From: Eledone cirrhosa | Lineage: Eukaryota | Reading direction: 5' to 3' | Assembly: GCA_964016885.1 (NCBI GenBank) | Contig: OZ024741.1 | Span: 287,804,001-287,868,000, forward strand | Length of the DNA stretch: 64,000 nt | Shown: one piece after another, positions 7,161 through 59,585 of the stretch | Numbering within the stretch: position 1 is the first letter of the stretch | Layout of the letters: every line of letters starts with the position of its first letter | Notes under the pieces: model-generated | The model's input: the letters and a program-made list of their open reading frames with translations, nothing else | Database searches by the model: none | Told to the model about the DNA's origin: nothing | Made by a program: the position numbers and the translations under genes

Positions 7161-7332
7161 TAGATAGATATAAGTTTATCCCGGGTTCAATCGGGAGTAA
7201 CCACAGTAAGTAAAGTACTCAATACAAAGTAGAGTATAAATATTTAATATAGAAAAGGCTTTTACAGGACTAGAACTGTTTCATTCTCCGGAATGAAACA
7301 GTTCTAGTCCTGTAGAAGCCTTTTCTGTATTA
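7161..7332 (-). mobile_element. Very short fold-back PLE remnant (pseudo-LTR end plus tail)
   Basis: ~42-bp inverted arms around TCCG at ~7288, containing GAAACAGTTCTA (HHR 3' half); tail with bulged hairpin at 7216-7236; flanked by microsatellites. Confidence 0.6.
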
Positions 7333-7440
7333 TATATATATATATATATATATATATATATATATATATATATATATATATATATATATATATATATATA
7401 TATATATATATATATAAATATATATATAAATATAAATATA

Positions 7441-8755
7441 GATTTTGAGGTTTATGTTGGTTGTATACCAACACCTCAGTATGCAGGCTGGAGCACTCGA
7501 CGAAGTGCGCAGGTTGGTTTGGTTACTCCGGAGTAGTGTAAAATAAAGTTAAATAAAAGTCAAATGATTAAAATTTAGCTTCGTTTATTACTGCTATATA
7601 TATTTCAGTGACAGCTATATATATTTCAGTGACAGCCATCTTTGAATTAGTATGGTATAGACAAGTACATATGTTGTTTAGGTGTATGATATTGTCAATA
7701 CTCTGATATGCCCAGTTCCTTGTTGGGTTGTTAATTCACTGGGGAACTGGAGTCATATGAATTCAAACAAACGAATTTTCGTGTCACAGGTCCCCTTCTC
7801 CTCTCATTGGTCAGTTATTAGAACATTCCTCATTCTAAGTGTTGTTATTGTTGGAGTTAGCTTAAAAATTGATAAAATGGTAGAAGGGACAAGGTGTTAA
7901 AGGAACAAAATAACAAAAAAAGTGTCAAACTTCCCATTGTTCAGTTCTGAGAGCATTCCTCAGTCAGAAGTCTATAGAATTCTTTCTGGGGTGAGGCTCC
8001 CTGTAGTGTTTTTGCCTGCTATTGTTCAGTACATTTGACCTCCACCATTATTTTGGTACTGTTGTTGTTGTAGTGGTCAGCTTATATCTTGCTGCTGCTA
8101 ACAATTTAGAAGTATCCAGTTTGTGTTTTTTCTTCATCCTCCCCGCCACCATCGTAGTGGTGGTGGTGGGGGGGGGGGGTTCTTTCGTGTATATGAAGAA
8201 ATATAAGGCAATAAATGAAGAAACCAGAAAATAAATAAATAATATAATAAAATAAAATAATTAATATAATTTGTGTAATTTGAAAATAAATAAATAAATA
8301 GAGAATAAAGAATAAAGAGTAAATGAGAGATTGGTGAAAAAGTAATGATAATGTATATGGAGAAGTGAGAAATAATGTAGGATAAAGTGTGTGTGTGCTA
8401 TAACCAATCTCAAGGTCAGAATATGTTGGATAGATTGGTATGATACAAGATGTTAAGATGAGGAATGTTCTAATAACTGACCAATGAGAGGAGAAGGGGA
8501 CATGTGACACGAAAATTCGTTTGTTTGAATTCATATGACTCCAGTTCCCCAGTGAATTAACAACCCAACAAGAAACTGGGCATATCAGAGTATTGACAAT
8601 ATCATACACCTAAACAACATATGTACTTGTCTATACCATACTAATTCAAACTGCCTGAAGAGGTCACAGCCAAAGATGGCTGTCACTGAAATATATATAG
8701 CAGTAATAAACGAAGCTAAATTTTAATCATTTGACTTTTATTTAACTTTATTTTA
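7441..8755. mobile_element. Fold-back Penelope-like element remnant in (TA)n
   Basis: Inverted arms ~7539-7837 and ~8455-8755; HHR in the right arm; only the left arm carries the tail (7441-7538). Confidence 0.8.
8650..8704 (+). ncRNA. Minimal type I hammerhead ribozyme
   Basis: ACTGC-CTGAAGA-stem II (..CACAGCC/GGCTGTC..)-GAAA-TATATA-TA-GCAGT; the left-arm copy has lost the CTGAAGA half. Confidence 0.8.
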
Positions 8756-8836
8756 AATATAAATATATATATATATAAATATATATATATATAAATATAA
8801 TATAAGATCAAAAGATGGTTAAAGGAGTTCAATATA

Positions 8837-8903
8837 TTTTATTATGCGCATTTCAAAAACAAACATCATCAAACAATAATATTTGTGTTTTCATCAGATA
8901 AAA
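8837..8903 (-). ncRNA. Minimal hammerhead ribozyme
   Basis: Reverse complement of 9033-9099. Confidence 0.85.
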
Positions 8904-56326: not shown

Positions 56327-56420
56327 ACCCCTTGATAAGCTCGGCTATTTAAATACCTGAATAAATTTTCATTCAGTCCAGAATTAGCCGTCGAAACGGC
56401 TTGAGCTCAGCCGCCGGGGT
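56327..56420 (+). ncRNA. Hammerhead ribozyme, U3-A8 variant with a full stem III (inverted copy at 53591-53683)
   Basis: ACCCC-TTGATAA-stem II-GAAA-CGGCT TGAGCTC AGCCG-(T/C)C-GGGGT. Confidence 0.7.
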
Positions 56421-56903
56421 CTTACTTGTTCCTATTACCCACTCTACTACCCTAAGTATTGAGTACTTTGGTGCGTTATGGCCCACCTGATTCCTTACCA
56501 CATTTCCTTCGTTATATAAATATATATATATATATATATATTTATACATATATATTATATATATATACATATATATTATATATATATATATATATACATA
56601 TATATTATATATATATATGTATATATATTATATATATATATATGTATATATATTATATATATATATATACATATATTATATATATATATATACATATATT
56701 ATATATATATATATATATATACATATATTATATATATATATATGTATATGAATGTATATATAGTGTATTTTGCAATATACTGTATACTTAATTAAAATCA
56801 TTTCGAAGACCTTACGCTATTATTTTAGAGTAGTGACAGTCTCACTTACTTTAATTTTCAGCAAACAGGGGAGATAAAGCTGACAGAGCTCTGTTTCGCA
56901 CTT

Positions 56904-58067
56904 TTAGACTCTTGCGTGGCCGTTGCTGTATGGGGGTCTGGTTCTTCTGTTGATTCGTTCAGTATTCATGTGTCTTTGATTTTGTCTCCGGTGATTGTTC
57001 TTGGTGTTATGGCAGTGGTTGTATCTGGTTCTGGTGTTGAGTATTGGGTCTGTATGTAGTTGTGTGTTTGGGGTTACCCAATATCTGGTTGTTGTTGGTT
57101 TATTGTGTGTGGGTGCTTCATTTCTTGTGTTGTTGTATTTTCCTGAGTTCTGGGGTTTCCTATGGGTTTGTTTTCTGGGTTTTATTTGGTCTTTCCCATA
57201 GTTATCTTCATATTCTTGAAGCCATTGAGTTCTTGACTCCAAGATTTTCTTTGATTTTAACTCCTCTCTAGTTGTATCTGTCTGCCATAGGTTAAGGAGT
57301 TTTTCACGTACATTGCCGCTGCTTCTTTTGTTTATTTCCTCTTGGATGGTGGTGTCGCATTTTTCAAATTTCTCTTTGAATTTTGGCACTCTTAGGCGGA
57401 GTAGGGTGATTTCGGTCTCAAGTGTTTGGAGTGCTAGATTTAGTCTTGTTGCAGTTTCTTCCTTTGATTCCGATGGTATTTCTTTAATTCGGAATTTTCT
57501 CGGGAGGATAACTGGTTCCTTGCTACGCCATATTTCGTATGTGTCTGCTAGGTTTTCACTCCTCAAGGCTTTCCAGTATGCCTGTTTCCTTTGATTTAAT
57601 AATGGGTTCCAAATGTTTTTCATTTGGTTTCTTTTTCTGTAGGCTTCTTTTTCTAGGTTCAGTTCATTCCATTCTTTGAATGCATTATTGGTGATGGAGT
57701 TCTGTTCATGTGTAGCTATTTCAGGAGAAAAGGTTTGTTCTTGTTTTTGCCGGCCTGTAATTAGTGAATCAAGTTTTTCCCTATAGCTGCGTGTTTGTTG
57801 TTCCATTTCTTGTACGGCATTCGTAAGGGAATCATATTTATCTATTATTATGGTGAGTTTTTCTGATATTTCCTGTAGTAGTGTATCCGATTTGAGGGAT
57901 TCAGTAGAGGATTTTGAACGTGTGTTAGCCATTCTGTCTTGTACAAGGGGATAGAATATTGGAAAATGTGTGTAATCCTTGGTACAGTTAGGTATATTAA
58001 GACAGGGGGGAAGAAAAAATGGCTTCACTTGTGCTTTCAACAAATTTATTTTCTTCACAAAATCCAA
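56904..58067 (-). CDS. PLE N-terminal extension homolog without a downstream RT (likely start MANTRSK at ~57932)
   Basis: Shares LLQEISEKL, RKQAYWKA, ILPRKF..EI..E..EET..R and EY..NYGKD with 51795-53141. Confidence 0.65.
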   Translation of the reverse strand: MDFVKKINLLKAQVKPFFLPPCLNIPNCTKDYTHFPIFYPLVQDRMANTRSKSSTESLKSDTLLQEISEKLTIIIDKYDSLTNAVQEMEQQTRSYREKLDSLITGRQKQEQTFSPEIATHEQNSITNNAFKEWNELNLEKEAYRKRNQMKNIWNPLLNQRKQAYWKALRSENLADTYEIWRSKEPVILPRKFRIKEIPSESKEETATRLNLALQTLETEITLLRLRVPKFKEKFEKCDTTIQEEINKRSSGNVREKLLNLWQTDTTREELKSKKILESRTQWLQEYEDNYGKDQIKPRKQTHRKPQNSGKYNNTRNEAPTHNKPTTTRYWVTPNTQLHTDPILNTRTRYNHCHNTKNNHRRQNQRHMNTERINRRTRPPYSNGHARV

Positions 58068-59585
58068 AAAGAATTTTTCTTAAAAAAATTATTTTATAAA
58101 TTAAGTTGTTGGTTGTTGGTTAGGTCTTAGGAGTTCTTGGTTAACGTAGGAGGTATTGTTTCGTTTTTAGAAAGACCTTTCACGCTGAGGTGCGCTTGTC
58201 AAACTGATGTGTATGTGGTGTGTTATTCTATATATAGGGATTTAACATGTCTGTGGTGTGGTGGGGGTTTCTTTTCTCCCCCTTTAATAAGTGCATGGGT
58301 GTAGGTGTGTTGAAAAAGTGTTCATAGCAGTAATGAGTTGAGACGGTGAGTAGGGTTGGGTGGGGAGAAATGTAGCAAGTGCAGCCTGCCCCGGTCATTC
58401 TCGAAAAATTCCTTTATTCAGGGGAAGAAGCTTTTAGTATTGCTTTTGTGTTGAGAATGGTCACAGGCAAATCGCACCTGTCAAGTTTGTGAATAATTAT
58501 TTTTTTCTTCTTTTTTTCCTGAAGAATTTTTCTACGTCCATCCCAAAGTTAGTCCTTTGTTCAACACACACATATGTGCGCATATACGTACATACACACA
58601 CGGGCATATGTAGGAATATATAGGCACACACCATCAATCACACACCCATGCACAAATACATCCACATACATACACAAAAACATATAGAGACACATATAAA
58701 AACACATATATACATACGTACACACACGAATATGTACTCATACCTCCACATGGGTATATATATATATATATATACATACACATACATATATATATATATA
58801 TATATATACATACATATACACATATACATACATATATATATATATATACATACATATACACATATACATACATATATATATATATATACATACATATACA
58901 CATATACATACATATATATATATATATATATATATATATATATACATACATATACACATACACACACATATACACACACACATATATATATATACACACA
59001 CACATATATATATATATATATACATATATACATACATATATACATATATACATATATACATACATATATACATATATACATACATATACATACATGCATA
59101 TACATACATATACACACATAAAGATACATAACTAAATATACATATATACACATACACGCACACATACACACACACACACACACACACACACGCACGTGTA
59201 TAGACACACACACACACACATACACACACACACACACACACACACACACACACACACACACACACACATACACACACACACACATATGTCCGTATATATT
59301 CCCCTCCGTTCACACATACATGCATACACACACACACATACACACATACATCTATATATATATACACATATAAAGAGAGAGGCATACACACCTCAGCGTG
59401 AAAGGTCTTTCTAAAAACGAAACAATACCTCCTACGTTAACCAAGAACTCCTAAGACCTAACCAACAACCAACAACTTAATTTATAAAATAATTTTTTTA
59501 AGAAAAATTCTTTTGGGATTTTGTGAAGAAAATAAATTTGTTGAAAGCACAAGTGAAGCCATTTTTTCTTCCCCCCTGTCTTAAT
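57995..59585. mobile_element. PLE pseudo-LTR region with inverted copy
   Basis: ~195-bp inverted arms 57995-58192 and 59389-59585 upstream of the ORF. Confidence 0.65.

Follow-up and report, generated by a model that had tools for sequence, protein, structure and literature searches.

How can a single insertion of a retroelement leave two inverted copies of its 3' end, with a short tail on only one of them? The question is raised by a 64,000-nt window of the Eledone cirrhosa genome (G000:C2:287804001-287868000 of a 3.0-Gb animal assembly; window positions are counted from its first letter), in which microsatellites are abundant and Penelope-like elements (PLEs) lie head to head, typically within (TA)n. 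One arm usually ends at the boundary of the pseudo-long terminal repeat (pLTR), and the other continues into a tail. The origin of such inverted ends and tails is described as an open question in PMC8557442 and was left open in PMC11167929. By their motifs, the elements are new members of known clades, and their layout is already published; what is new here is the measurement of tails, arms and junctions, and the mechanism is read as a fixed-register variant of twin priming. We consider it probable that two fixed registers on one capped sense RNA are primed at the cut target and that the resulting cDNAs are joined 3' to 3'.

The evidence comes mainly from family A, the family of the pair at 8797, which has a second window member at 12427 and carries Hydra-clade motifs. 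Its full unit measures 3,673 bp, and its tail is the first 88 nt beyond the pLTR boundary; arm positions are counted from that boundary (0), so that the tail ends at +88 and upstream positions are negative. Family A ends were located genome-wide through exact sequence patterns (a 20-mer at the end has 10,210 exact matches) and pairs were scored from coordinate lists; the samples of end-motif pairs, centre-sampled pairs and end-sampled loci overlap and lie in the first 96 Mb of one contig. Arms of this family end at 0 or +88. The end-motif sample, made up of the first tailed (74) and tail-less (100) end matches on contig C1 (90.6 Mb), resolves into 118 clusters: 52 head-to-head pairs, 65 single matches, many of which are pairs with a very short tailed arm, and one other. 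Among the head-to-head pairs, 46 have one tail, four have none and two have both (p = 5e-9 against an expectation of 0.5). When 53 pairs were sampled by their centres, blind to the ends, 45 were one-tailed, one was tail-less and none was doubly tailed, with seven unscorable. The same rule is seen in two further families: 22 of 24 pairs are one-tailed among the first 100 matches listed for the Neptune-type family of 48998 (p = 2e-5, although two pairs look duplicated), and 24 of 26 among the first 100 listed for the family of 33835 (p = 8e-7, one unscorable).

The first-pass annotation of the window had proposed that, once a (TA)n site is cut, each of its sides is joined to a 3' end of the element and the two junctions use different registers. 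This proposal is supported: family A arms end at one register or the other, nearly always one of each, and the inference extends to the families of 48998 and 33835. The regular asymmetry that it described holds genome-wide far beyond chance without being absolute. The annotation overlooked the one-arm tail already in print (PMC8557442, Figure 2 legend; PMC3846280), and it likewise missed the match of the two registers to two reverse transcriptase (RT) start sites observed in vitro (PMC11167929).

The two arms of an insertion resemble each other far more closely than they resemble other copies. Across 71 family A insertions, divergence between arms averages 1.2% within an insertion and 5.4% between insertions, and at 14 polymorphic sites the arms agree in 964 of 972 comparisons and disagree in eight, where 340 disagreements would be expected at random. 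Private variants in these insertions sit on one arm only in 74 of 86 cases and on both arms in 12; later gene conversion is thus not the main cause of the match, which dates mainly from insertion. The same centre sequence recurs in several haplotypes, while the common haplotypes each have several centres and long copies. Because junction types cut across haplotypes that are shared with long coding copies, the pairs must have formed anew each time rather than by copying of one unit, and on the same grounds we rejected a palindromic unit resembling a miniature inverted-repeat transposable element (MITE), or a retrozyme, as their source.

The geometry of the arms was scored in 65 one-tailed insertions, of which 64 were end-sampled and one (L042) was added, with four rows that were not one-tailed excluded; end points are BLAST ends, seven of them corrected by hand (L042 and six others), and positions from -165 to -185 are pooled as -169. 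Both arms reach -169 in 14 of the 65, and in none is an arm ending at -169 paired with an arm that extends beyond -200 (on average 15.7 such pairings in 20,000 permutations, not one of which gave so low a count). The ends of the two arms correlate (rho 0.72 overall, 0.45 among the 23 long pairs). Of the 48 untied cases, 38 have a tailed arm that ends before its partner does, as do 27 of the 37 in which both arms pass -30 (p = 0.008); a shortfall of 8-25 nt occurs 12 times, with no case in the mirror interval (permutation mean 1.7). Junctions at these small offsets are mostly blunt, contain added bases or overlap by 1-2 nt. In four insertions the tailed arm consists of the tail only and has no sequence in common with its partner. 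A fold-back from a single primer fails to account for this geometry, because a start at +88 makes the tailed arm the longer one and a start at 0 has no tail to copy.

The inner ends of the short pairs coincide to the base. Around 2,140 family A pairs meet at -169 (2,142 forward and 2,143 reverse matches), a position that probably marks the capped start of the sense RNA, the short pairs then being double run-offs. In arms that read through this position the base just upstream of -169 is C in 72 of 73, and therefore a templated cDNA would continue with G. The base that follows the run-off is instead C in 1,955 exact matches and T in 464; within the same 254 Mb of C1 the counts are 100 and 22, although 18 of the 100 are ambiguous in that the partner's templated base also explains them. 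The start region is 20% C and 38% T, and A and G after the run-off were left uncounted because overlap and templating confound them. An extra cap-derived base marks full-length L1 5' ends (PMC11702581), and the untemplated C in family A is likewise likely to stem from a cap.

Three further observations concern these inner ends. In about 12 of the 100 rows of the extra-C list, the C is followed by a second copy of the run-off's final 7 nt, which suggests that the cDNA end re-annealed on the RNA and ran off a second time. Two long arms (L051:1175 and L059:1382; n=2) stop within 5 nt of the upstream unit's +88 site, as if protein bound at the 5' start region blocked the enzyme. The hammerhead cut predicted at -45 was considered as the main truncation point in family A and rejected, the pile-up lying at -169; in a single one of the 65 insertions, L146 (G000:C1:70042380-70047710), both arms start exactly at -45.

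Our data suggest the following model. The GIY-YIG domain would cut both strands of a (TA)n site, as has been observed in vitro for the element PAc (PMC11167929). One target 3'-OH would then be extended from position 0 and the other from +88, the two positions at which the arms are seen to end. Both enzymes would move along a single RNA in the 5' direction, with the one that started at +88 trailing and displacing the first cDNA. If they use the copy of the pLTR-tail junction nearest to the cap, both would reach the end of the template at -169, where a C opposite the presumed cap is often added; if they use the 3' copy of that junction in a read-through RNA, long arms would result. Finally, the cDNA 3' ends would be joined, at junctions that are seen to be blunt, to overlap by 1-5 nt or to contain added bases, and each of the joined cDNAs may prime the second strand of the other.

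Several observations weigh against this model. The tailed arm goes further than its partner in 10 of the 48 untied cases, and it is 30 nt longer in the 6-kb pair of the window (18985). In total length the tailed arm is the shorter one in only 22 of 48, an outcome that two independent enzymes predict too. Six of the 52 end-motif pairs are tail-less or doubly tailed, although one of the six, L050, has a single tail when its true outer ends are considered. Genome-wide, tail-less ends are more numerous than tailed ones (5,805 to 3,803 exact matches, with patterns that differ in length), and 19 of 87 end-sampled loci have no head-to-head junction within 60 nt. Agreement in haplotype would also follow if only one subfamily were active at a time, and the in vitro work on PAc did not find that the top and bottom strands differ in their start sites (PMC11167929).

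The alternative that survives best, though we regard it as unlikely, retains two primings and derives the inverted arm by snap-back, the cDNA copying back on itself before it joins a short cDNA from the other site, which decides whether it acquires or lacks the tail. Such a route yields identical arms and correlated ends, and its loop of 10-25 nt matches the offset of 8-25 nt; the private variants found on both arms (12 of 86) also fit, as does the fact that perfect palindromic centres are the commonest class. However, the small-offset junctions, being mostly blunt or with added bases or 1-2 nt of overlap, offer no stem for an internal fold, and many offsets run to hundreds or thousands of bases. 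The tail-only arms require a direct end-to-end joint, and the C that follows the run-off on both strands at the centres points to two run-off ends. The first-pass annotation had spoken of fold-back insertions; in the sense of a one-strand snap-back, the term sits poorly with the tail-only arms and with a tailed arm that is often the shorter.

Slightly less plausible still is a dimer carrying two RNAs of the same source, whose subunits must each take a different register and copy independently of each other. The predicted dimer of PAc and the extension of both strands in vitro (PMC11167929) lend themselves to this scheme, the total arm lengths are unbiased (the 22 of 48 above), and agreement in haplotype could reflect one active source per cell. 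On its own, however, it leaves unexplained the lack of hybrids between start-site and long arms, the one-sided offset of 8-25 nt and the arm ends that nearly coincide at 800-1,500 nt. Two enzymes advancing in step would, moreover, be expected to end about 88 nt apart, and the peak lies elsewhere.

We hold out little prospect for self-priming on an antisense RNA to make a palindrome that the endonuclease resolves at staggered sites, leaving a tail (PMC3846280, PMC8557442). These are published proposals and palindromic centres are indeed common, but the extra C indicates that cDNA ran off a sense RNA at its 5' end, self-priming would find no partner sequence in the case of tail-only arms, and the tail matches the RT start sites found in vitro (PMC11167929).

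Reads from other samples bear on whether the pairs are real. Raw reads from restriction site-associated DNA sequencing (RAD-seq) of two other samples with the same species label contain loose ends that run into (TA)n at 0 and +88 (275 and 438 reads, respectively, in X21), as well as strand-switch joints, two of which were found in both runs; joints with tail-only arms are also seen. The 96 reads over one strand-switch joint share a single start and may stem from one molecule, and depth 10-20 nt across a perfect centre is about 16, 1-4 and 0 in three runs, which supports that centre weakly. The idea that the short palindromes were copied whole as one MITE-like unit, or are assembly artefacts, draws on this sparse coverage, on the roughly 2,140 pairs with one centre and on the 100% identity of the 6-kb arms at 18985 over 2,041 bp, but is very improbable given centres shared among several haplotypes that also have other centres and long copies, separate private mutations on the arms, both end positions and strand-switch joints in raw reads, and the fixed one-sided tail, which a read fold-back would not leave.

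There is also a broader claim, to which we give somewhat less than even weight: programmed twin priming may be the normal integration route of endonuclease-containing (EN+) PLEs, with a dimer setting both cut ends on two fixed sites of one RNA, a trailing RT that displaces the leading cDNA and halts 8-25 nt behind it, roughly the footprint of one enzyme, and cDNAs that capture each other's 3' ends. Were this so, second strands would be obtained without host primers, and a single scheme would cover inverted pLTRs, one-sided tails and solo pLTR pairs in at least two clades. The genomic record speaks against the published antisense self-priming proposal and gives sharp predictions for the in vitro system, namely that each product should contain both registers and arms from one RNA, that the tailed arm should trail, and that run-off products should end in a cap-derived base.

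Within the window, self-BLAST was used to locate the inverted arms, and tail lengths were read from its alignments and from the sequence. The first-pass annotation had listed at least 11 hammerhead-bearing insertions with outward arms in microsatellite and a tail on one side, plus two probable ones (48998 and 57995), 13 sites in all. Inverted arms are present at all 13, but only ten (7161, 7441, 8797, 10171, 12427, 18985, 31181, 33835, 48998 and 53578) are clean, with microsatellite left and right, one arm that stops at the pLTR boundary and another that continues into a tail of family-specific length (40-133 nt); 13032, 14229 and 57995 depart from this layout. A full CUGANGA...GAAA hammerhead core is found at eight of the 13 (7441 right arm, 8797, 10171, 12427, 14229, 18985, 33835 and 48998); the core has one mismatch at 13032 and is half or degenerate at 7161, 31181, 53578 and 57995. 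The symmetry implied by fold-back was overstated, as at six sites (7441, 10171, 13032, 48998, 53578 and 57995) the arms are unequal or a spacer of 0.2-4 kb lies between them; since this is about half of the 13, head-to-head pair describes them better.

The first insertion is a mini head-to-head pair (7170..7332) with arms of about 44 nt, and a tail of about 75 nt (7170-7244) on the left arm. It is flanked by (AGAT)n on that tailed left side and by (TA)n on the other, and of the hammerhead core it retains the GAAA half alone. It is followed by the 7441 insertion (7441..8755), with a 98-nt tail (7441-7538), arms at 7539-7833 and 8458-8755, an unpaired interior (7834-8457) and a hammerhead core at 8655 in the right arm. 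The family A short pair at 8797..9227 has arms at 8797-8968 and 8969-9139 that both end at the putative RNA start (-169) and are separated by one additional base pair, a predicted hammerhead cut after 9093 and an 88-nt tail (9140-9227). The second such pair (12427..12859) also has an 88-nt tail (12772-12859), with a different haplotype and a different junction from those at 8797. Between them lies the unequal pair at 10171..12336, in which a long tail-less arm (10171 to about 12191) with a 3' untranslated region (UTR) and a GIY-YIG remnant on the minus strand faces a short arm (12192-12246) with a tail of about 90 nt (about 12247-12336).

The 13032 site (13033..13431) has arms at 13033-13123 and 13341-13431, a G-run and (AG)n on the left, and on the right no microsatellite or defined tail end within 170 nt. 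The pair at 14229..14621, related to 10171, carries a palindromic insert of about 60 nt at its centre and a tail of about 58 nt that abuts the next repeat with no microsatellite. The largest pair, at 18985..31149, has a 133-nt tail (18985-19117) and 6-kb arms that contain the C-terminal part of an RT, a CxCX5C linker, a GIY-YIG domain and a long TA-rich 3' UTR; its open reading frame (ORF) parts are identical at 2041/2041 positions, the tailed arm extends about 30 nt further at the centre, and this identity means that the copy is either very young or in need of checking. The 31181 pair (31181..31700) has a tail of about 66 nt (31181-31246) and half a hammerhead core. The near-symmetric pair at 33835..34423, whose end motif has 28,183 exact matches genome-wide, is centred on 34097, with hammerhead cores at 34030 (-) and 34164 (+) and a 54-nt tail (34370-34423).

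The element at 48998..53560 (minus strand) is a full-length Neptune-type copy with a CX4CxxC linker, a C..C..H..H endonuclease motif and a broken RT; its 3' pLTR (48998-49193), 5' pLTR (about 53222-53310) and inverted tailed pLTR (53320-53560, tail about 40 nt) form the textbook Penelope layout. Partial pLTR tandems with an inverted 5'-truncated copy are seen there and, as tandems of the 3,673-bp unit, at L050, L063 and L150. The 53578 pair (53578..56512) has arms at 53578-54113 and 55893-56433, a tail of about 78 nt (56434-56512), an inner inverted piece (54773-54945/55737-55912), a 312-bp tandem (54099-54775) and a degenerate hammerhead core. At 57993..59588 the arms (57993-58192 and 59389-59588) end tail-less in (TA)n on the right, and the left arm runs about 1.1 kb further into an ORF (56904-58079, minus).

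The predicted hammerhead of family A has the full motif with stems I-III, and that of 18985, read by eye, has a long stem II. An Rfam search of the window gave no match at the gathering score; of 266 weak matches, the 150 listed are hairpins of microRNA type. The hammerhead-bearing ends of the window are not all paired, since one at 18660-18918 (+, core at 18807), adjoining (ACAT)n/(TA)n, has no inverted partner in self-BLAST. A complete compact hammerhead (stems 7/5/2) at 48223-48272 (+) directly follows (TA)n, with no partner seen. A nested inverted and direct repeat of about 350 bp at 14622-15825, absent from the first list, contains CTGACGA...GAAA cores. By eye, an ACTC...GAGT hairpin stands right after the pLTR boundary in the tails of 7161, 7441, 8797, 10171, 14229, 31181 (as GCTC...GAGC) and 53578, and is absent from 33835 and 48998; alignment of the tails was poor (38% identity) and folding z-scores were mostly weak (-0.2 to -3.5), and a shared tail hairpin is thus not established. 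Other inverted repeats are a pair of 192-bp arms at 46782-47901, with (TA)n on the right side only, around a proline-rich ORF with a CxxC motif, and a pair at 59654-59962 that adjoins (TA)n on its left, continues into an extension on its right and has no hammerhead core seen. A GC-rich tandem array of a 48-bp unit occupies 44556-45120. Two further stretches we take, by their motifs, to be broken elements resembling long interspersed nuclear elements (LINEs): one at 1509-6285 (-), with a zinc-knuckle ORF1 and RT pieces beside (AGAT)n, and one at 36523-38545 (+), with an RT and a C-terminal restriction-like part.

Coding remnants point to at least two clades in the window, a Hydra-type linker being present at 18985 and in family A and a Neptune/Nematis-type arrangement at 48998. 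The matches of 48998 to RVT_1 (E 2.7e-4) and GIY-YIG (E 2e-4) are both below the Pfam cut-off; its translation has a linker of the CX2-5CxxC class and CCHH in the endonuclease, a combination common to Neptune and Nematis (PMC8557442). RT and GIY-YIG-like motifs in family A and 18985 were read from translations, Pfam gave no match for 18985 or 10171, and no ORF could be linked to 7161, 7441, 13032, 31181, 33835 or 53578. The translation of family A shows DKT, the CxCX5C linker, CxxC and CxH and no CCHH, with RWK reading RWT in the copy read. These features, together with the hammerhead and the (TA)n targets, are those of the Hydra clade (e.g. Hydra-1_Obim, PMC8557442), and 18985 has the same linker; family A differs in its unit of 3.7 kb, against 'generally <3 kb', and was placed by motifs from a frameshifted copy.

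One-tailed inverted EN+ PLE insertions are in print (Arkhipova 2013, PMC3846280; Craig 2021, PMC8557442), and the inverted layout is repeated in PMC8969392. According to PMC3846280, one of the inverted pLTRs may or may not carry a tail, and an antisense RNA is proposed as the substrate of self-priming. In the excerpts of these two accounts tails measure 30-40 nt, against 40-133 nt here; the tail is optional and given without a count, whereas roughly nine of ten pairs here have exactly one; and antisense self-priming or resolution by the endonuclease is proposed, where we favour twin priming. Our literature search found no paper that counts tail asymmetry and none that describes this fixed-register form of twin priming, and among papers on twin priming and Penelope none concerned PLE inversion by title or abstract opening; a bioRxiv preprint on retrozymes (10.64898/2026.07.22.740005) has no passage on tails, palindromes or priming. 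The closest biochemical parallel is PAc (Poseidon, Anolis; Frangieh 2024, PMC11167929), for which both strands are cut and extended in vitro, two RT start sites bracket the tail, targets are AT-rich and a dimer is predicted; PAc belongs to another clade, and in the excerpt the work saw no strand difference in start site and did not address inverted products. The closest mechanistic parallel is L1 twin priming (PMC11702581), in which both target ends likewise prime on one RNA to give an inversion and an extra cap base is found. In L1 the internal site at which the second primer anneals varies, and the two pieces overlap hardly at all; in the present elements both starts are fixed, the pieces usually overlap by 0.1-6 kb and only four of 65 pairs are non-overlapping, so that we rejected the L1 form of twin priming for these elements, in which the inversion is the main product.

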